A stretch of 64,000 bases of DNA, from NCBI GenBank assembly GCA_014905635.1, contig JABVCE010000012.1, positions 1,116,001 to 1,180,000 on the forward strand, in the 5' to 3' direction. This stretch comes from Scenedesmus sp. PABB004 (lineage: Eukaryota). Position numbers and translations under genes: made by a program. A model generated the notes under the pieces. The model saw only the letters and a list, made by a program, of their open reading frames with translations. It did not search any database and had not been told where the DNA came from. Of the stretch, positions 1 through 11,819 are shown piece after piece; within the stretch, counting starts at the first letter, position 1; each line of letters starts with the position of its first letter.

Positions 1-39
1 GCGCCCCGGCGCCGCGGCGCGCGCGCGCTCGCCCCGCAG

Positions 40-267
40 GTGCTGCTGGACCCGCCGCGCGCCGAGCTGGAGGCGCGCCTCGCGGCGCGGGCGGGCGCGG
101 GGGGTCACTTCATGCCGGCGAGCCTCCTGGACTCGCAGCTCGCGGCGCTCAGCGTCGACCCGGGCGAGCTCTGGCTCTGCCTCGGCGGCGCTGCCGGCGC
201 CGCGCTGGGGCCGGTGGAGGAGGTCGTGGCGGCCATCCTGGAGCGCCGCGGGCAGGCCGGCGAGTGA
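40..267 (+). CDS. Last exon of a gluconokinase (GntK/IdnK-like); upstream exons outside the window
   Basis: Acceptor cgcag at 35-39, then VLLDPPRAELEARLAAR...GHFMPASLLDSQLAAL; HFMPxSLLDSQ is the gluconokinase lid motif; TGA ends at 267. Confidence 0.85.
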   Translation: MLLDPPRAELEARLAARAGAGGHFMPASLLDSQLAALSVDPGELWLCLGGAAGAALGPVEEVVAAILERRGQAGE

Positions 268-562
268 CCCCCGCCCCCGAGAGGGGGGGGGGGGCGTGAC
301 CTCACGCACTCAGCGTGCGCGCCCTGAGCTGCGCGCTCACCGGCGCGCGGCGGCGCGGCGCGCGGCCGGCGTGTGGCCAGCGAGCTGTCGGCGGCGCCGG
401 GCGCGCGCGCTCGGAGGCCTGCTGGACTGAGCCGGTGCTACCAGGACCAGCTCCATTGCAGCCGTGGGGAGTTGGGCGTCGTGCCCAGGGCCCTGTGTGA
501 TGAGGCCATCCACCGAGCGTGCCGGGAAGGGCCCCCCACACCTGCAAAATGGATCCACCATC

Positions 563-608
563 TGGTTCCACCCGGGATCGAACCGGGGACCTCCTCGGTG
601 TTAACGAG
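563..608 (-). tRNA. 3' portion of an interrupted tRNA-Val(AAC): anticodon arm, T-arm, acceptor strand
   Basis: Minus strand reads CTCG-TTAACAC-CGAGG-AGGTC-CCCGG-TTCGATC-CCGGG-TGGAACC-A, with TTTT downstream (plus 546-549 aaaa). No D-arm or 5' acceptor strand is adjacent. Confidence 0.9.
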
Positions 609-942
609 CGGCGGCGGGCTGGTCCATGGTTTGTTGCCTCGGTCAAGTGTTACCGACACGCGCACCCGCGAGCGCGGCCCCCACCCAACCACCACCTCAA
701 CGCGGCCGACGCAGCCAACGCCTCGCCGCCGTCGCCTCGCCTCCACCGCCGGCCTGCCCGCAGCCGCCGCCGCCGCTGAGCCGCCAACACCTCCGTCGCG
801 CGCAGAGCGCGCCCGGAGGTGCCCCCGGAGCCCAGCACCACACGCGCCCAAACAGCGTCGCGGCGGCCGCACCAAGCACACGCCCGCACGCAACACCAGC
901 TGGCGCCTCGCGCACTGCCGGGCATCACACACGTACATGCAC

Positions 943-2395
943 TCACGCGAGGCGCTGCAGCGTGGGCTGCGCCACGCACAGCGCGACGCCCCGCTCGCGC
1001 GCCCAGGCGCACAGCTGCTCCAGGCCGCCGCGAGCCAGGCGGTCCTGGTGCATGGCCAGGATGACGTTGCAGCCGCCGCTGGCGAGGGTCTGCAGCACCT
1101 TGAACAGGTGGTGGTCGTGCGGCAGCTGCTCGCCAGGCGGGCAGAACACGCTGCCCACCAAGCGCTCCAGGCGCGAGGGCCGCGCGTCGCCGCGGCCCGT
1201 GATGACGACGGTCGCGTCCACGATGGCCGCGTACTGGCGCAGGAAGCTCTCGCCGTCCCCGACCTGCGCCTCGGTCGACACGCGGACGAGCGCGCCGAAG
1301 ACGAGCGGGCCGGCGGGCAGGCGCAGCTCGTCGCGCGCCGCCCGCTGCGGCGGCAGCAGCGCCGCCAGGGGTGGGGCCTGCCCGCCGGCGGCGGCGGCCG
1401 CCGCAGCGTCGCGCAGTAAGGCATTGATGTCGCCCATCCGCCCGCGGCCGACGAGGGCGAGGCGGCTGCTGCCGGCCGCGAGCGCCGCGCCCTCGCTGGC
1501 CGCGGCGGCCTCCGCCGCCAGCAGCGCGGGCATGCCGATGTTGCTCGCGGTGATGAGGAATGGCAGCGACGTCAGCTGCACGGCGTTGGGGTTCGCCTCC
1601 GCGCGCGCCGCGCCGCGCTCGCGCTCCTCCAGCGCGATGGCAAGCCACGCGGCGCGCGCGTCGGCGGCCAGGCTCTCCGCGGCGGGCGCGCCGATGAGCA
1701 GCGCGACAAAGGCGCGGGCGAGGCCGGCGCGGCCGCCCTCCTCGATGCCGCTGAGCTCGCGCGCGCCAGCGGGTGCGCCGGCCTGGCGCAGCAGCGCGTT
1801 GACGACCGGCAGCGGCGCCAGCAGCACGAGCACGTCGAGGCTGTCCTCGCCGACGAGCGCGGCGAGGGCGCCCTCGCAGCGCGACGCGCGGCTGACCTCC
1901 GTCACAGCGACGAGGCCGCGCCCGCCCGCCGCCGGCGGCGGCGGTGGGGCCGGCGGCCGCCGCCGCCGAGCTGCTGCCGGCCGCGCTGCCGGCGCTGTCG
2001 CACTGGCGCACGGCGCGGCTGCCGCCGGCGGCGCTGATCGCGGCGAGGGGCGCCTTGCGCGCCTCGTCGCAGCTGGCCGAGGCCGACTGCCGCGCAATGT
2101 GCACGGGCGTGTCGGCCGGCACCATGGCGGACAGGTGGGCCTGCTGGTGGCCGGCCGCCCCGCCGCCGGTGCCCTTGCTCGAGCGCGCGAGGCGCGCGAC
2201 GCGGCGGTAGCGCACGGTGATGGCCATGACGGTGCGGCGCGTCAGCAGCACCTGGGGGTGTATGGCCTTGGTCCGCACAGCTAGCGCCGCCTTGCCCGAC
2301 AGGCGCGTGCTGGCCGCGCCGCTCGCGCCCAGCAGCTGGGCGGCGTATGCCGCGTCGTAGTCCAGGTTGGCCTGCGGCGTCTCGACGGGGTGCAT
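943..2395 (-). CDS. Serine recombinase (resolvase / IS607-TnpA-like) protein with two catalytic-type domains; one frameshift near 1920-1990
   Basis: C-terminal domain: GALVRVSTEAQVGDGESFLRQ (Ser codon 1276-1278) and VILAMHQDRLARGGLEQLCAWARERGVAL (DRLAR 1030-1044). N-terminal domain: RRVARLARSS, LVAVTEVSRASR and WLAIALEERER. ATG at 2395 is in a different frame from ORF 943-2097. Confidence 0.8.
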
Positions 2396-2949
2396 GGTCG
2401 GCCCTGCGCTGGGCGGAGTGCGACGATGGGCGGCGGCGCGCGCGCGCGCGTGAGCAGCGCACGAGCAGCGGCGCGCGCAGCAGCAGCAGCGGCAGGGGCG
2501 CCCGGCGCCGCCCCACGCGGGGCGAGTACCCACGCCTGGCAGCACAGCGCAGCAGCGGGCCTGGCGCAGCACGCCGCGCGACGGCGCGGGCGCAGCGGAG
2601 CGGGCGCGGCGCGGCGGAGTGCTGCGCGGGTGAGTGCTGCGCGAGCGGCGGGTCTTCAGCGCCCGTGCGGTGCGTCACGCGATTGCAGGTGGGGGCACTG
2701 TGCGGCGGGTTGGCGACTCGCGTGCGTCGCGGCGGCACGTCAAAAGGGCGCAGCGACGATGACTCGTCGCGCTGCGCCTGCGTGCCTTTGCATCGCACGC
2801 AGGCGCGCTCCCCGCGTTCCAGCGGCCCCGCTCGCTGCGACGAGGCGCCGCCCAGGCGCAGCGGCAGCCCGGAGGCATTGCTGCCGGCACGCGCTCGGCG
2901 CGCGCTGCGCCGGCCGCCGCCCGCCGCGCTGCCCCTGGCGCCGCCTGCG

Positions 2950-4505
2950 ATGGCGGCGCAGCCGGACCGCAAGCGCCCGTTCGAGGTGCGGCGGCCGTGG
3001 CGGCGCGGCCGCGGCGGCGGCGCGATCAGCAGCAGCAGCAGCAGCGCCGCGGCGACCGCCCGCGCCCGCGCGCGCGGCGCCGCAGGGCGACGACGGCGAC
3101 GCCATGGCCGGCGAGGACGGCGGCCCCGAAATTGCCACCGACACCGAGGGCAGCGACGACGACGAGGTGCGCAGCCGGCACGCGTCGGCCGCGGCGGCGC
3201 GGCGGCGCGGCGGCGCTGTCCGCGACCCACGCGCGCCCCATGCGCCGCCGGGCGCCGCCCCTGCTCGCGCCACAGGCCTACGACGTGCCCGGCAGCACCG
3301 CCGCCCTGCCGGACGGAGAGGTGCGCTCGCGGCGCGTGTGGGGGCCGCAGACTCCGCGCCGCCGACCTCGCGCGCGCCGCGCCACGCGCGCGCTGCCGGG
3401 CTCTGCCGGCCGACTCGCGCGCGCCGCCGCCGCCGCCGCCGCCGTGGTGCAGCTGTTCGACCTGGCCAGCCTGCCCGTGTTCGCGGCCGGGCTCCTGGCG
3501 GTGCAGGGCAGCGCGCCGCTGCAGCTGTCCAGGGTCACCGTGGCCCGCGCCGCGCCGGCGCGCCGCGAGGCGCGGGCTGTCGGGTGCAACGGCAACTGCC
3601 CCCTGCTGAGCTCCTGTATGGTGCCGGGCTGTGCCGGCTACGTGCCCGTGCACGGGCCCGGCTTGCTGGCGATGGCCGCAGCGCGGCGGGCGGCGCCGCG
3701 CGACAGCGTTGGCCGCGACCCCGTGTCGGCGCGCGCCGGCCGCGCCAGCGCCGTCGCGGGGCAGCAGCGCCGCGCGGCGGCGGCGGCCGCGACCGGCGAG
3801 CTGGAGCTGCCCTTGTGCGTGACGTTTGAGGCGTGGAGCGGCAAGTACCGCGCGACGCTCAACCTAACGCTCAGCGGCAAGCGCGCCGAGCCGGCTGGCT
3901 CCTCGGCGGCCGCTGCCGCGGGCGCCACCGTCGCCGAGGGTGCCGCCGCCAAGGGCGCCGCCGCCAACGACGCCCCCAAGACCCTCGCTGCCTACCTCGC
4001 CGGCGCCGCGGCCGCCGCTCGCGCGGCGGCCGGCGAGGCCGCCGCCGCCGCCGCCGCCCGGGGCGGCGCCGAGGCGCCTGGCACGCGCAGCGCGTGGGCG
4101 CTGGCCGTGCGCGTGCTGGAGCAGGCAGCCAAGCTGGCCGGGGGCAGCAAGCCGCCGACCGCGGCCAAGGCCGAGCTGCGCGCCGCGCGGCGCGCCGATG
4201 TGCGGGACGCAGCGGCGGACGCCGCGCTGGTCCGCGACGTGGCGCACTGCGTCAGGCTGCGCGACTCATCGCAGGACGACCGCGGCGCGTGGTGGTCCAG
4301 CGCAGCGGGCCTGCCGCCGTGGGCGGAGCTGCAGGGCCTCGCCGCGCGCGCCGCCGCGGGGCAGGCCTTCCTGGACATCATGCTCCCCGAGCTCAAGAGC
4401 GCCGACACGGTGCGCGGCGCGGGGGCGATGCTTGCGGCGCCGCCGGCGCCGCCGCGGCCGCTCGGTCGCGTGCCTGCGCTGACGCGCCGGCGCTCTGCCC
4501 GCAGG

Positions 4506-4551
<46 letters not shown>

Positions 4552-5163
4552 CGACGGCGCCAACGGCGCCGGCGGCGCCGGCGAGGGCATCACGCGCGTC
4601 ACGGGCGTGAACAAACACAACGGCGGCTGGCGCGGGCTCTGCTACGTCACGCTCAGCAAGGGCGAGAGCGCCCTCACGCACCACGTCCCCACCCTCGAGC
4701 AGCGCCAGCAGGCGGCGGCGGCCGCCGCCGCGGCCCCGGGGCGGCGCTGCCCCAGCAGCTCGCGGTGGCGGCGCTGGGCGCGGCGCTGGGCGCGGCGCGG
4801 CAGGCGGAGACGGCGGCGCAGGCGGCGGTGGCGGCGCGGGACCCGGCGCCGGACCCGGCGGACGTGCCGGCGGCGGCGGCGGCAGTGGCGGAGGCCGCGG
4901 CAGCCGACCTGCCCAGCGTGCCCGTGAAAGTCTACGGCCCCACGCGCCCCGCCAGCCGCGCGGGCCACGGCCGCGCAGTCGAGGACCTGCGCATCCTGGA
5001 GCGCGCGGCGCACCTCGCCGGCCTGCGCGAGGCGGCGGCGCCGCCCGGCGGCGCGCCGCCGCTGCCCGCGTATGCGGCGCTCGACGGGCGCGCGGCGCGC
5101 GAGGCCGCGGCCACCGCCCTGTGCGCCAAGTCACGCGAGCGGCTCGCCGAGCTGCCCGCCTGA
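2950..5163 (+). CDS. Spliced hypothetical protein with two internal AP2-like repeats (element cargo)
   Basis: Frame-preserving GT-AG introns 2986-3085, 3167-3275 and 4410-4504. Repeat 1: LPLCVTFEAWSGKYRATLNLTLSG...VRVLEQAAKLAG. Repeat 2: ITRVTGVNKHNGGWRGLCYVTLSKG...LRILERAAHLAG. Apparent frameshift at a C/G run near 4735-4742. Confidence 0.55.
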
Positions 5164-5563
5164 GAGCTCCTGGCCGGGCGGCCCCGCCGGAGGGGCCGCG
5201 GGCGGCCGCGGGCCGGCGGCTGGCTGCGCGGGCGCGCGTGTGCGGGGAGAGTTGGCGGCGGGGCCGGCCCTGTCCAGCCGCGCGCGCGGGGCGAGAACGC
5301 CGTGCGAGTGCATGCGTGTCGCGCCGGGCGTCGTAAAGCTGGCCGCGGCGCAGTCCCCTGGCCGGCGCGTGCCTGGCCGGCGCGTGCCCGCAACTGCTCC
5401 CCCCTCCCCCGCGCCCCGCGACGGCAGCGCACGAGCACGTCGAGGTTGTCCTCTACGCAGCTCGGCGCATTTTGAGATATGACATATATATATGAGTAGT
5501 CTATCGGAGGTGTCATTCAGACTTGATTACTCTGAAACGCAAAAAGCCCATTCGCGGATACAG

Positions 5564-5637
5564 GGTTCCATGGCGTAGTTGGTTATCGCGCTCGCCCGAC
5601 ACGCGAGAGGTCCCCGGTTCGATCCCGGGTGGAACCA
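5564..5637 (+). tRNA. Complete tRNA-Val with GAC anticodon and C33, carried inside the element
   Basis: GGTTCCA/TGGAACC acceptor stem, GCG/CGC D-stem, CTCGC-CCGACAC-GCGAG anticodon arm (GAC at 5598-5600), GGTTCGATCC B-box, discriminator A. Confidence 0.9.
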
Positions 5638-5639
5638 TG

Positions 5640-5647
5640 TTTTTTTT
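5640..5647 (+). terminator. RNA polymerase III oligo-T terminator of the carried tRNA
   Basis: Eight T residues beginning 3 nt after the discriminator base. Confidence 0.85.
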
Positions 5648-5895
5648 ATGAACGGTTGTTCTCGGGGCGCGCCATCGGGCGTCCATTTTGCACCGCACAC
5701 GCCCTGTTGGCCCGTCCCTCGGTGTGTGTGCGCGGAGACAACACTGAGTGTGTGCGGGCGACGCTTTTGGGCGTAGGCGTGGCCACGGGCGGCAGCTGCG
5801 CGCGAATGACTGGCAAACTTGAAGGGGTCCGTGTGTGCGCCGTAGGCGCCTGTTCACCCCAGGTAACGCCCTTCTTCCGCGATTTCTCGGTGGAC

Positions 5896-5929
5896 AACGA
5901 GGTGTCATAACCAACTAGACCATGGAACC
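5896..5929 (-). tRNA. 5' portion of the interrupted tRNA-Val(AAC): acceptor strand, D-arm, start of anticodon arm
   Basis: Minus strand reads GGTTCCA-TG-GTCTAGTTGGTTATGAC-A-CCTCG-TT. GGTTCCA pairs with TGGAACC and CCTCG pairs with CGAGG of the 563-608 portion. The upstream flank is AT-rich. Confidence 0.9.
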
Positions 5930-6175: not shown

Positions 6176-6310
6176 GTGGGACGCTCAACCGCCCGGAGCG
6201 TACCGGGCCCCGCCGTGTAACCAGCAACAACAACCTCGCGTGGGACGCTCAACCGCCCGGAGCGTACCGGGCCCCGCCGTGTAACCAACAACAACAACAA
6301 CAGCCTCGCG
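6176..6310 (+). repeat. Two 48-nt direct repeats (period 64), each ending TGTAACCA and followed by (CAA)n and CCTCGCG
   Basis: 6176-6223 is identical to 6240-6287. Confidence 0.9.
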
Positions 6311-6410: not shown

Positions 6411-9400
6411 GTGGACGCGCCGCCGGCAGTGGGGGCGGACACCGTCAGCACCGCCGCGTGCGCGCCCGCCCGGGCCCGCGCGATGCGGGAGACCGCCCCA
6501 CGGCCGCAGGCCGGGTCGGGTCGCGCACCGGAGCCGGCGCCGGCCGGCGGCGTCGCTGGTGGCGAGCGGGCTGCGACTGCGGTTGGCGATGTAGCGTGCC
6601 CTCCCGTCAGCGGGCGCGTCGGGGCTGCCCGGCCCCGCGTGGAGGGGCCCGCCACGGCGGGCGGGGAGCAGCCCCGCCTGCTCGTGCCCGGCCCGGTGGC
6701 GGCGGGCAGCACGGCCGCGGCCGTGCGGGGCGGCGCGGTGCGCCCCGACCGCCGCGGCCGCGCCAAGCGGCCCCGCCTGGCGGGGCCGCCGCGCGGCGTG
6801 AAGCGCCGCGCCGCTGAGGAGCTGGCGGCGCCGCAGAGCCGCTGGCAGCGCAGCTGCTACGCCGGCGAGGGCTGCGGCAGCACCTGCGCCGCGGCCACCG
6901 ATGCGGCCTCCCGCGCCGGCGGCGGTGCCGTGGAGCGCCTGGCTGCGCGGCTGCGCAAGGTGCGCGTCGGCGACGGCGCGGCGCGGCCGCGGCGCCGCGG
7001 GCCGCCGCGCGGCGGCGCCGTCCCCGCCCCCCGCCCCCAAATGCCCAGCCGCGCTAGGCGGGCGCGACGCGCCGCGCCGGGCTGCGCTGCGCTCCGCGTG
7101 GTGAGCCACAACGTCGACGGCCTCGGGGCGCGGCTCAGCCCCCAGGCCGAACACGGGCTCCCCGTCGCGGAGTGGGGCCGGCCGGAGGCTGCGGCGCAGG
7201 TGTGGGTGGAGTTGGGCGCTGACGTTGTGCTGGTGCAGGAGGTCAGCATGCCGCGCGCGCAGCTCGACGGCGTGCTGAGGCGCATCAACGCGGCCGCCGA
7301 GGCGCACCACGCCGCAGTGCGTGGCGGCGCGCACGGCGGCTTCGACGCTGAGTTCTGCCTGGACGACGGCTCGGCAGGCGTCGCCATCCTTTGGCGGTGC
7401 AGGCTGGTCGAGCAGGAGGCGCTCAGTGTGACGCGGGCTGGCTGCGGTTGTGGCAGCGGCGGGTGCCGCAGCGACGACAGCCACTGCACAACGCCGCCCG
7501 CCAGGGGCAGGCTGCTCACAGCGCGCGTGCGCTGGGGCGGCCACACGCTGCGCCTGGCTAGCGTGTACTGCCCCAACGATGCTGCGGCGAGGGTGGCGCT
7601 GCTGGGCCCCGACGGCGCGGTCGGCCGCGCCTGGGCGGCCGCGCCCGCGGGCGGCGCCGTCTTTGCCGGTGATTGGAACTACGTGGAGGACCCGCCCGCG
7701 GACCGCCGGCGGCAGCGCGGCGGCGCGCCGGGTGCCGGCGAGTGCCCGGACGACGCGCGCTGCGCCGCCGCGTGGCGGGACGGGGCGCCGGGCGCGGTCG
7801 ACGCCTTCCGCTGGCGTCACCCCCGCACGCACGGCTTCACGTTTTTCCACCGAGGCAACGGCCACCTCGCACGGCTGGACCGGGCCTACGTTGCAGAGCC
7901 CCTCGCCCGGCACGTGCTGGCCTGCACGAGCCAGCCGGCGGCGGTGTCGGACCACGACCCGCTGGTGCTGGAGCTGCTACCGCGCGTGACGCCCTGCCCG
8001 CGCGGCCGCGGGCTGCCGCGCGCGCGGCTCCAGTTTTGGAGCTCGGCGGCGCTCCGCGGCGCGCTCCGGGAATGGCTGGCGGGCCAGGTGGACGGCGCGC
8101 CCGCGGACCCCAGGGCCCTGTTGCTCTGGTACCCCGGGTTCAAGCGCCGGCTCCTGGACAAGGAGCGCGAGCTCGCGCAGCTCTGGCGCAGGGTGCAGCG
8201 GCAGGAGCAGCAGCGTGCTGGCGGGCGCGAGCTACGGCGGCTCGCGGAGCGCGCCGCGGTGCGCGCGGCCGAGGCTGACGGGCAGCAGGAGCGCGAGGAG
8301 GCGCTAGCCGCCCTCACGGCGGCCCGCGACGCCCTGCGCCGACACGCGGCGGCTACGCTGCGGGCGAGCGCGCGCGTCCAGCGGCTGCGCTGGCTGCACG
8401 GCGGCGAGCGCCCATGCACGGGCATCACGGAGCAGCTGCGCGGGCTGGAGCGCGGCGCGGCGGCGGGCCGCGTTGTGGCCCTCCGCAGCGCCGCGGGCGA
8501 CCTGGTCACGCGGCGCGCCGGCCCGGCCGAGGTGGCCATTGCGCACTGGGCCGCGGTCAGCGCGCAGCCGCGCGTTGATGCTGCGGCCCGGGCGCGGGTG
8601 CTGGGCGCGGTGCGCCGCTTCCCAAGCGCGCCGGCGGCGGCCGACGGCAGGGGCGAGGTCACAGAGCACGAGGTCCAGCGCGCGCTGGCCGCGGCGCGGC
8701 CAGGCTCGGCCCCCGGGCCGGACGGCCTGCCCACCTTGCTCTGGCGGCGCTGCGGGCGGGTGCTGGCCCCGCTGCTCGCCCGCGTGTTCTCGGCGGTGGG
8801 GGAGCTCGGCGCGGTGCCGGACGGCTTCTTGGACGGTGCCGTCGTCGGCAATGACAAGGGCGGCGACCGCACCGCGCCGGCCAACTACCGGCCCATCACG
8901 TTGCTCAACGCTGACTACCGCCTGCTGGCGCGCGTGCTGGCCGACAGGCTGCAGTTTGTGCTGGGCGATGCCATCTCGCCCACGCAAACAGCCTTCATCA
9001 AGGGGCGGCGCATCGGCGAGAACATCCTGGCGGTCCAGCTCCTGCTGCACGCGCTGCCCGCGTCTAGCCGGGCGGCGGCGGCGCTGCTGGACTTCCAAAA
9101 GGCCTACGATACAGTGGATCGCGGCTTCCTCTTTGCCGTGATGCGCGAGATGGGGGTCCCGCCCGGCTTCCTGCGCTGGGTCCGGCTGCTCTTGTCGGAC
9201 ACGCGCGCGGTCGCCGTGGTCAACGGGTTCACGTCGCAGCCCCGCGCGTTCTGCGCGGGCATCCGCCAGGGCTGCCCCCTCTCCCCCCTGTTGTACCTCT
9301 TTGTGGGCGAGGCGCTCCTCCGCTTCCTGCGTGCGCACGACTTTGGCATCGCGCTGCCAGGGTCCTCTGCGCTGCTGCCGGGCCCCCGCCTGGTGGCCAC

Positions 9401-9989
9401 GCAGTACGCGGATGACACCCAAGCCTACATTGAGGTGGGCCAGGTCCCCGCCTTCCTGGCGGCCATGGACGACTACGGCGCGGCGTCGGGCCAGCGCCTG
9501 AACCGCGCCAAGTCAAAGCTCTTGCTCCTCGGCAGCGCCGTCCAGGCGGAGTATGGCGAGCTGCGGCGGCAGCGGCGGGAGCTCCGGCGCGAGCTCGCCG
9601 CCGCGGCCCACGGCAACACGCGGGCGGCCGTGCGCCGCCGCCTCGACGCGGCCCGCGCGCGCATGGCGCTCCTGCAGCAGCCGCCGCCGCCGGCGGCGGA
9701 TCAGCCGCCGCCGGCGCCGGGCACGCCGCCGCAGAGTCAGGAGCTGGCGCGCCCGCCGGCGTGGCGCCGCACGCGGCGGCAGCGGCGGCGCCGGGAGCGC
9801 CGGCGGCTGCAGCAACAGCTTGAGGGCAGCGCCGCCGCGGCGGCCGCTGGGGGCGGCCTCTCGCCGCCGGAGCCCCGTGCTGGCGAAGGCAGGAGTGGCA
9901 GCGACAGCGACAGCGGCGGCAGCGCCTGCAGCGGCGGCACCACCAGCAGCAGCTGGAGCCACGGCAGCGGTCGCGGCGCGGTGCGGCGG

Positions 9990-10067
<78 letters not shown>

Positions 10068-11819
10068 CGGCAGGCGCCGCAGGAGCAGGAGCTCGGGCCG
10101 CTGCCGGCGGCCGAGCCAGCGCCGCCGCGGCCCGCGCCGCGGCGGCGCCCGACGCCGCGGCCGCGGGCGCCGCAGCCGCTGCCGATGCTTGCCATGGTGA
10201 GCTCGGCGCGGGTGCTCGGCGTCATCGTCGGCCGCTCGGAGCGGGCCGAGCGCGAGGCGTGGGACGACCGCATCGACCAGGTCACCGCGTCGACCTCACC
10301 GCCTTCGGGCGCGGGCTGGGCTCGGCCGCGTACGGCGTCAGCAAGGCGCTTTTCGCGGCGGAGTTCTCCGACCTACCGTCGCCGCAGCAGTGCGCGCGGC
10401 TGCAGGCGGCGGTCGCGCAGCTCGTGGACAGCGGCCAGGCGCCGGGGGCGCGGCCGCGCGCCTTTGCGGGCGTGCACGCGGCGCTGCTGGCGGGCTCCCC
10501 GGCGGCGGGCGGCTTTGGCGCCATGCCCTGGCTGGAGCACGTCCGGGCCCGGCATGCCTGGTGGGGCTCGCGCCTCGTCGCGGTCCGACCGGACACGCAG
10601 GTGCCCTGGATCCTGCTCGCTCGCAGCCACCTCTGGGCGGCGTGCCCCTGGTGGGGCCCGCTGGCGCTGCTGGACTGCGGCCCCGACCAGCGGCCTGTCG
10701 GCGATGGCTGGGGCCCGCGCGTGCTGGCGCCGCCGCCCCCGCTGCGGGGCATGATCGCTGGCCTGGCCGCGCTGGTGCCGGTCATCCAGCTCGAGCCCAC
10801 CCCTGCGGCTGGGCCCTGGTGCGCCGACGTGCCGGTCTTCGGCAACCCTCTGATCCGCGACGTGTACCCCTCGGGGCCGCGCGGCCTGCAGATCAGGCCG
10901 GTGCCGGAGGTCGGCGGCCGCCGCGCAGGCTACGCGCGCACGCTGGTGCGCTCGCTTGGCGACCTCGTGCGCGTGCAGCGCTGGGCGGCTGGCTGGCCGG
11001 AGGCGCTGGCCCACGACGCCAACGCGGAGCGGGCCGAGTGGGCCGACGTCCAGGCGCTGATGGCTGCGGTGCCTGCGGGGTGGGTGGAGGCGGCGCGCGC
11101 TGCGCCCCTGCCGCCGCTGCCCCCCCCCGCGGCACGCGCATGACCGGGCGGCGTCGACACGCAGCGGCGCGACAAGCACGTCGCGTTTGCGTGCCTGGCG
11201 CTGGGGCTGGCGCCGCCGGCACCGCGCGCGCTGCCCCCGGCCGCGCTGGCCGACCTGGACGGGACCGCCGTCGACGCCGCGCCTCCCCCGGGAGCTGGCC
11301 CTCACCGCGTCGGTCAGGGTCGCCCTGCGCAAGCTGTGGCGGCTGCGCTGGGACAACGCGGTGAAGGAGGTGTACTGGCGGCTCGCGCTCAACGGTCTCG
11401 CGACCGCTGAGCGCATGTCCCAGCCCGAGGCTGTCTGCCTCTGCGGCGTCGCCTGCCCCGGCCGCGCGCATCACTACTGGGAGTGTCCCATCGCGCAGGC
11501 AGTGGTGCGAGCCATGCTCGACTCGCTGCCCGCCGAGTGGTGCGCGCGCCCGGCCGATGGCGCGCCGCGCCTGCGCCGCGAGCACGTCTGGCTCACGTTC
11601 GCGCCGCCGCCGGCGGTGCGGCGCGCCGGCGCGCGGCGGCTGCACTCGGGCGTGTGGCGCGTGGTGTGCCTGGCCGCGCTCGCGGCCATGGACACCGGCC
11701 GGCGCGCCGCCCACCTCACGGCCCTCCAGGCAAAGAGGGAGGCGGGCGCGCGGGCGGCCGCGCGTGCCCGGCGTGCTGAGGCGGACGGCGTCGTTGCAAA
11801 CACACTTCAAGAGATGTGA
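6411..11819 (+). mobile_element. L1/Tx1-clade non-LTR retrotransposon ORF2 (APE endonuclease, reverse transcriptase, C-terminal Cys/His region), frameshifted
   Basis: APE: SHNVDGL, VLVQEV, SVYCPN, AGDWN, ARLDRAYV, SDHDP. RT: PGPDG, NYRPITLLNADYR, LDFQKAYD, GIRQGCPLSP, QYADD. C-terminal KEVYWRLALNGL...CLCG...HHYWECP. Frame breaks near 10285 and 11140-11190. No ORF1 seen. Confidence 0.93.
9993..10067 (+). repeat. (CAG)23-CAA-CAG microsatellite encoding polyQ inside LINE ORF2
   Basis: Read directly; in frame with the RT. Confidence 0.95.

Follow-up and report, generated by a model that had tools for sequence, protein, structure and literature searches.

A tRNA-Val(AAC) gene split by a 5.3-kb insert with a serine-recombinase-like gene in the green alga Scenedesmus sp. 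PABB004

The split tRNA-Val(AAC) gene and its junctions

Within a stretch of 64,000 nucleotides from the nuclear genome of Scenedesmus sp. PABB004 (contig JABVCE010000012.1; the whole stretch is referred to as the window), a tRNA-Val(AAC) gene is divided by an insert of 5,287 bp (609..5895), which carries the gene of a serine-recombinase-like protein (HT031_004117), a second and apparently multi-exon gene, and an intact tRNA-Val(GAC) gene. The 5' part of the divided gene (5896..5929, minus strand) is 34 nt long and covers tRNA positions 1-33; the 3' part (563..608, minus strand) is 46 nt long, covers positions 28-73 and is followed by a T-run terminator (~545-550, minus strand). Common to both pieces is the hexamer AACGAG (plus strand), which forms a 6-bp direct repeat at 603-608 and 5896-5901 and corresponds to tRNA positions 28-33, i.e. 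the four anticodon-stem bases of the 5' strand plus U32 and U33. In silico deletion of 609-5901 yields a 74-nt tRNA-Val(aac) that ARAGORN recognises as a regular cloverleaf. The original prediction for this locus, made from the sequence alone, had placed two tRNA halves 5.3 kb apart, in the right order on the minus strand, and its coordinates are confirmed by this restoration. That two pieces should complete each other exactly and overlap by 6 bp is far beyond chance (~4^-6 for the overlap by itself); the split tRNA-Val(AAC) gene is real in the assembly, and its structure is unusual. ARAGORN and Rfam found no intact tRNA-Val(AAC) in the window, just the two pieces.

At the right junction, the similarity to the target extends beyond the hexamer. 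The anticodon arm of the target reads CTCGGTG-TT-AACGAG (594..608), its last 6 bp being the left direct repeat, and the right junction holds an imperfect copy of it, CTCGGTG-GAC-AACGAG (5886..5901), the last 6 bp of which are the right direct repeat; between the shared 7-mer and the hexamer there are thus three differing bases instead of the two in the target. Owing to this extended match, the 5' tRNA piece bears a distorted version of the entire anticodon arm. A comparable 7-mer match occurs in ~1.5% of 400,000 random position pairs from the same, repeat-rich window, and at this background rate the mimicry is suggestive and no proof. One further site in the window resembles the right junction, with 3 mismatches, which is within chance.

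The ends of the insert have little else in common. Terminal inverted repeats were not found when the first 80 nt were aligned to the reverse-complemented last 80 nt (best local alignment score 9; shuffle mean 8.4; 42% of 500 shuffles equal or higher), and the short repeats common to both ends, just 9-11-mers, are about what chance would give. Inspection by eye revealed no Helitron-type ends (TC...CTRR between A and T). An 11-mer, TCCATTTTGCA, is located downstream of both the split tRNA (543-553) and the tRNA-Val(GAC) (5682-5692), at about chance expectation.

The G+C content of the insert is ~0.8 (up to ~0.84) as far as ~5460 and then ~0.60 up to the right junction. Located at this drop is a 50-nt stretch (5418..5467, plus strand) that resembles 1812-1864 inside the recombinase gene in the same orientation (score 55; the highest score among 300 null trials was 49). 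This stretch may be the relic of a second, truncated copy.

The recombinase-like gene and its family

The gene of HT031_004117 (943..2395, minus strand; stop codon 943-945) ends 334 bp from the left junction. Its two exons (~2395-2000 and ~1842-946) encode 429 residues as annotated (sequence P0001), and the translation of the open reading frame (ORF) 943-1947 (minus strand) is 100% identical to the NCBI protein HT031_004117 of Scenedesmus sp. PABB004. The C-terminal portion (946..1300, minus strand) comprises a putative serine-recombinase catalytic core, from beta1 to beta4, with the RVST and DRLAR motifs that had been proposed for ORF 943-2097 (minus strand) and that are indeed present.

An exhaustive HMMER search of 1.84 billion representatives retrieved just three relatives of HT031_004117, all from Logan and JGI data and all of the same architecture: P0002 (448 residues, expectation value (E) 6e-18), P0003 (428 residues, E 1e-10) and P0004 (98 residues, E 1e-7). 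With a total of 4 clusters in 1.84 billion representatives, the family is very rare. The RVST motif (RVS) is kept in all three of the sequences that cover it, and HQDR[LY]ARGG, containing either DRLAR or DRYAR, in 4/4. Pattern matches in viral contigs (0/19) and in metagenome contigs (0/151) were not confirmed as relatives; two gut-metagenome loci, L001 and L002, were spurious and encode giant surface proteins. A tblastn search of plasmids gave two weak Ralstonia matches, at places with no annotated feature.

The fold of the C-terminal domain

A Pfam search with the whole of HT031_004117 returned nothing useful. Searches restricted to the C-terminus gave faint but consistent signals, among them matches below the cut-off to the IS607 transposase of NCBIfam and the Resolvase family of Pfam: the C-terminal 135 residues matched IS1535 TnpA (6dgb) in a phmmer search of the PDB (E 0.003), and a profile of the four C-terminal domains returned serine recombinases in 5 of 6 PDB rows (6dgb, 3lhk, 3lhf, 3g13 and 3bvp; E 0.01 to 2). 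The C-terminal domain (120 residues) was modelled from a small alignment with a predicted local distance difference test score (pLDDT) of 78 and a predicted template modelling score (pTM) of 0.77. When this model was compared with the PDB by Foldseek, the best match was again 6dgb, the IS607-like IS1535 TnpA (E 9.4e-4, template modelling score 0.54), followed by the PhiC31, ISC1926, MJ0014, TP901-1, Tn3 and gamma-delta enzymes, and serine recombinases make up the majority of the first 25 rows listed. VIA-align, which is independent of Foldseek, ranked serine recombinases in all of the best 12 of 48,161 chains (Z 10.7 to 7.4; root-mean-square deviation 2.6-4.9 Å over 88-113 residues), the next and unrelated row having a Z of 7.3. 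Among the viral structures of BFVD, the matches were phage and giant-virus recombinases. The resolvase fold that the original prediction had expected of this ORF is hence borne out by a confident model and by Foldseek, VIA-align and BFVD, all of which point to serine recombinases.

In the model, RVST directly follows the predicted beta1 (model residues 18-24), and the RVST and DRLAR residues presumably correspond to Arg8/Ser10 and Asp67/Arg68/Arg71 of gamma-delta resolvase. The modelling and the searches support the assignment of the C-terminal ~120 residues as a predicted serine-recombinase catalytic core, to which IS607 TnpA is nearest. The product stops ~9 residues past beta4 and aligns to resolvase residues 1-100 alone, so that helix E, which in serine recombinases forms the dimer or tetramer interface, is missing.

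The N-terminal half is of a different nature. A second resolvase-like domain, suspected by eye from the motifs ARSS and SRASR, is unsupported; a PDB profile search with this half gave lipases at E 0.05, and hhalign of the N-terminal half against the C-terminal domain gave a probability of 0.4%. The full-length fold of P0003 had a pLDDT of 40 and was unusable.

The gene model leaves some room at its 3' end. A perfect GTGAGT donor hexamer overlaps the stop codon (941-946, minus strand), and P0002 and P0004 likewise stop at ...R[IL]A; the donor at the stop, together with the similar ends of the homologues, makes a missed 3' exon possible, which perhaps encodes helix E. No candidate for a helix-E-like exon was recognised in 600-900 (minus strand). 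Further upstream, the annotated intron (within 1842-2011, minus strand) excises a segment starting with VAVTEVSRASRCEG that is conserved in P0002 and P0003. If the intron were instead a GT-AG intron running from 2011 to 1896, part of this segment would be retained.

The second gene and the carried tRNA-Val(GAC)

Divergent from the recombinase gene, a second gene extends over ~2950-5163 (plus strand). The prediction of a second spliced gene in the insert holds insofar as an apparent multi-exon gene is located there; the splicing part of it was read by eye alone. The gene has no Pfam or PDB match, and AP2-like motifs noticed by eye found no support in these searches. Homologues were not found among longer proteins, which was the sole length range searched and makes this weak evidence. 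A Pfam scan of the insert's 39 stop-to-stop frames of at least 80 residues (E <= 0.01) yielded neither a transposase nor another credible family, the sole match being to an unrelated vertebrate domain, and it likewise yielded no phage or conjugation genes.

The whole tRNA that had been predicted inside the insert was recovered as an intact tRNA-Val(GAC) with C33 (5564..5637, plus strand; ARAGORN; 62 bits in Rfam), followed by a T8 terminator. It is located in the low-G+C right part of the insert (5468-5895) and is the sole intact tRNA that ARAGORN and Rfam detect in the window. In the acceptor stem and the T arm it does not differ from the split tRNA-Val(AAC): the T arm and the 3' strand of the acceptor comprise 31 identical bases, and the 5' strand of the acceptor is identical too, while the D and anticodon stems differ from those of the split gene by compensatory changes. 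According to one study, eukaryotes have swapped G34 for I34 tRNAs in the case of valine and seven other amino acids, and G34 tRNA genes of this kind are reported to be absent in eukaryotes and to be toxic there unless position 32 or 38 changes (PMC8266599). Whichever agent moved the insert, it is remarkable that a G34 tRNA-Val should lie in DNA that has put an A34 tRNA-Val gene out of action.

The surroundings of the insert

The rest of the window contains ordinary nuclear genes, among them those for a chlorophyll a/b-binding protein, histone H2A, an alpha-amylase and an O-methyltransferase. To the left, 1-270 (plus strand) holds the C-terminal end of a gene, by eye similar to gluconokinase-type kinases, which ends ~290 bp before the 3' end of the tRNA. 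To the right, the ORF of a non-LTR (long terminal repeat) retrotransposon (6411-10754, plus strand) that has endonuclease/exonuclease/phosphatase and reverse transcriptase domains begins upstream of the 5' end of the split tRNA, at a distance of a few hundred bases; CAG/GCA repeats within the ORF (9982-10072) cause spurious Rfam matches. Between this ORF and the AT-rich region upstream of the tRNA, two tandem units of ~64 bp can be seen by eye (~6177-6310).

Origin of the insert

The reading that we favour, tentatively and with somewhat less than even confidence, is that 609-5895 is a single-copy integrative element moved by a serine recombinase, or the fixed remnant of such an element. Its agent would be HT031_004117, a member of a small algal family that combines a large N-terminal region with what appears to be an IS607-type C-terminal core. 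The insertion could have proceeded in the following manner: Once joined, presumably in a circular intermediate, the ends of the element would create a site similar to the tRNA anticodon arm, with identity at 13 of 15-16 positions. The recombinase, possibly with a preference for the anticodon arm of tRNA-Val, would exchange strands inside the common AACGAG, whereby the hexamer would be left at both junctions and the tRNA inactivated. The carried tRNA-Val(GAC) could then take over the codons that the lost gene had served, GUC and GUU. Support comes from the position of the recombinase gene, which adjoins a junction, and from the insert tRNA, which has the same amino-acid identity as the disrupted one and an anticodon type that is normally missing in eukaryotes. 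The tRNA regained on deletion, the 6-bp repeat, the 7-mer mimicry at the right junction and the recombinase fold with its conserved motifs count in its favour as well. Moreover, with a family of 4 clusters in 1.84 billion, a chance passenger inside a tRNA-splitting insert is unlikely.

A number of observations weigh against a recombinase-driven element. There is no second copy of the insert within the window and no paralogue of HT031_004117 among the annotated proteins, so mobility and tRNA targeting would both be deduced from one copy in one window. The DNA of the window is ~80% G+C and the composition of the insert is host-like; in conjunction with introns that by eye are of host type, this indicates that the insertion may be old. 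The junctions, too, are unlike the chemistry of the proposed agent: the exchange by serine recombinases spans 2 bp, and IS607, for which these are GG, makes no duplication and has little target choice (PMC6188088), whereas the repeat here measures 6 bp and contains no GG. The similarity to the target is confined to one side, the right junction. The 6-bp repeat, the one-sided similarity and the target position fit DDE transposons of the Dada type at least as well. As to the protein itself, curated thresholds do not support its assignment to IS607 or to the Resolvase family: the match to NCBIfam NF033518 (IS607 TnpA; E 1.7e-4) scores 21.2 bits compared with a cut-off of 110 and is limited to profile positions 105-153, and the Pfam family PF00239 (Resolvase) matches 943-1350 (minus strand) with 13.9 bits (E 0.058; gathering cut-off 23.3) and P0004 with 13.7 bits, with no match for the whole of P0001, P0002 or P0003. 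Helix E is absent from the predicted product, and IS1535 TnpA without helix E is defective in the formation of the paired-end complex (PMC6188088). Finally, Pfam, NCBIfam and PDB profile searches with the N-terminal 300 residues did not reveal a DNA-binding domain.

Several of these points would be accommodated if the insert had arrived by another process, such as the capture of a fragment at a break or the rearrangement of a tRNA-Val cluster, and the recombinase-like gene were a domesticated bystander, an explanation that we regard as rather unlikely. It would suit a G+C content as extreme as that of the surroundings, spliceosomal introns (by eye), the single copy (in the 64-kb window and among the annotated proteins) and a core that is devoid of helix E; the low-G+C portion 5468-5895 looks like an ordinary tRNA locus, and IS607-derived genes have become fixed in the nucleus of Lachancea kluyveri under purifying selection (PMC2715888). 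Break repair, however, usually entails a loss of bases and not a 6-bp duplication, and it leaves unexplained both the target-mimicking end and the presence, in one fragment, of a gene for a recombinase fold together with a tRNA whose identity is that of the target. The insert could instead be a non-autonomous or decayed Dada or similar DDE transposon, moved by a transposase encoded elsewhere, and the recombinase gene, the second gene and the tRNA would be captured passengers: the 6-bp repeat over tRNA positions 28-33, the lack of inverted ends and the right subterminal CTCGGTG mimicking the target are all Dada-like, and the described habits of Dada (6-7-bp duplication, no inverted repeats, tRNA-Val-AAC as target), closely match these junctions. 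Such an origin nevertheless seems unlikely. Scans of the insert's 39 frames and of 79 long frames elsewhere in the window revealed neither a DDE nor any other transposase, a result that is weak in this respect because no Dada profile was used and Pfam may not cover Dada; the inverted partner of the subterminal motif does not occur within 150 nt of the left end; the term 'green alga' occurs 0 times in the 2013 Dada text (PMC3706591); and it would be strange for a mere passenger to come from a family with 4 clusters in 1.84 billion.

Two further explanations do without an insertion of this kind. The tRNA pieces could have been misjoined to unrelated sequence during assembly, tRNA genes being repeats. 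A collapse or misjoin at repeats, however, yields whole units and not two complementary pieces with a 6-bp overlap, the contig is 1.24 Mb long, and an annotated gene lies in the insert, all of which make an artefact very improbable. A functional split tRNA of the Nanoarchaeum kind, with separately transcribed halves that are joined in trans, is hardly credible, and neither is a relative of the permuted tRNA genes of algae, even though disrupted and permuted tRNA genes are reported for some algae (PMC3728597, PMC3978253). The duplex between the 50 nt that follow the 5' part and the 50 nt that precede the 3' part has an energy of -23.4 kcal/mol, no better than that of shuffled sequences (mean -26.6 kcal/mol; 77% of 500 shuffles pair as well or better); trans-splicing was rejected on these grounds. 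Furthermore, the break falls at tRNA positions 28-33, which is no intron site, and the halves stand in normal order, 5.3 kb apart, with protein genes between them.

Significance

Mobile elements that insert site-specifically into multicopy RNA genes follow a 'safe harbour' strategy. To our knowledge, the eukaryotic DNA elements with this habit are so far confined to the DDE type (Dada), the others being retroelements. If the insert was indeed moved by its recombinase, serine recombinases would be a new enzyme class in the target-specific mobile DNA of eukaryotes, and HT031_004117 could be a compact integrase that is already adapted to an algal nucleus and has a defined natural target. The wider claim, that the insert exemplifies an undescribed class of green-algal elements with a divergent serine recombinase, the tRNA-Val anticodon arm as target, recognised by way of a tRNA-like attachment site, and its own G34 tRNA-Val as compensation, is unlikely at present; were it true, this class would be the eukaryotic counterpart of the tRNA-targeting islands of bacteria, operating by different rules. 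If, alternatively, the insert is of the Dada type, this superfamily would be extended to green algae, including the capture of a recombinase gene. The G34 tRNA-Val is of interest alone, being of a type that is reported as absent from and harmful in eukaryotic translation (PMC8266599).

Comparison with known systems

The insert had originally been described as an element of the prophage or island kind that targets a tRNA gene. The split tRNA and the recombinase fold uphold part of this description, whereas a bacterial-type island is not what is found, since the tRNA is not left intact. Bacterial elements that integrate into tRNA genes carry the 3' part of the tRNA, so that the target gene stays whole. 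The prophages and islands at bacterial tRNA genes share with the insert a recombinase gene near a junction, a tRNA site, short direct repeats and cargo. Unlike in these elements, the target tRNA is lost, and what the insert carries is a whole tRNA of its own with another anticodon; the host is a eukaryote, the introns are apparently spliceosomal, and phage and conjugation genes were not detected in the frames of the insert. Among bacterial serine recombinases, TnpX (Tn4451) and TndX (Tn5397) excise their elements as circles, exchange strands at GA and prefer targets that resemble the joint of the circle. This target habit would fit the resemblance between the joined ends of the insert and its target. 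The order of domains in TnpX and TndX, catalytic at the N-terminus and followed by large C-terminal DNA-binding domains, is opposite to that in HT031_004117.

The original prediction also knew of no described equivalent, which as a claim is too strong, since Dada sits in tRNA anticodon arms and IS607-type genes occur in eukaryotic nuclei. For the specific combination, a search of the literature from 2019 retrieved no paper on a eukaryotic tRNA-associated integrative element with a serine recombinase, and the papers retrieved on serine recombinases and Chlamydomonas transposable elements do not describe such an element.

What is said here of Dada follows Kojima and Jurka 2013 and Kojima 2022 (PMC3706591, PMC8869645). 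Dada elements have no terminal inverted repeats and generate target duplications of 6-7 bp. They insert at fixed positions of tRNA, small nuclear RNA and 5S genes, with the anticodon arm as a hot spot that is used by several families, and Dada-tV targets tRNA-Val-AAC, -TAC and -CAC. Complete elements measure 4.7-11 kb and come from animals, Perkinsus, Laccaria and Ectocarpus, and the letters flanking them are sometimes altered. Like the Dada families of tRNA genes (Dada-tL, -tA, -tD, -tV), the insert is nuclear, resides in a tRNA anticodon arm, is bordered by a short duplication and has a comparable length. The subterminal motif that Dada has in common with its target finds its parallel in the 7-mer CTCGGTG, located 3 nt from the repeat in the insert and 2 nt in the target. 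In contrast to the insert, in which no counterpart was found, Dada encodes a DDE transposase of more than 1,000 residues with DxxH and with CCCC and CCHC zinc fingers. Dada families are multi-copy and have no serine recombinase, whereas the insert is present in one copy in 64 kb and contains a recombinase-like gene.

IS607-type genes that encode serine recombinases are known in eukaryotic nuclei (PMC3627910, PMC2715888). The members of this family (IS607, IS1535 and ISC1926, together with the relatives in eukaryotes and giant viruses, namely the Fanzor2 elements and the genes of Lachancea kluyveri) have a catalytic core corresponding to that found here at the C-terminus, and the IS607-like TnpA proteins are the best match in both structure and sequence; neither IS607 elements nor the insert have terminal inverted repeats. 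Compared with IS607 TnpA, the protein described here is twice as long, has an unrecognised N-terminal region of ~300 residues and has no helix E; in IS607 TnpA, a winged-helix or MerR-like DNA-binding domain precedes the catalytic one. The absence of a duplication, the use of GG and the low target selectivity of IS607 (PMC6188088) contrast with the 6-bp repeat without GG at one specific tRNA position. Unlike IS607 and Fanzor elements, the insert has no TnpB or Fanzor gene, its cargo consisting of the second gene and the tRNA. The nearest known system is therefore a different one for each of the two aspects: Dada for the anatomy of the insertion, and IS607 TnpA for the protein.

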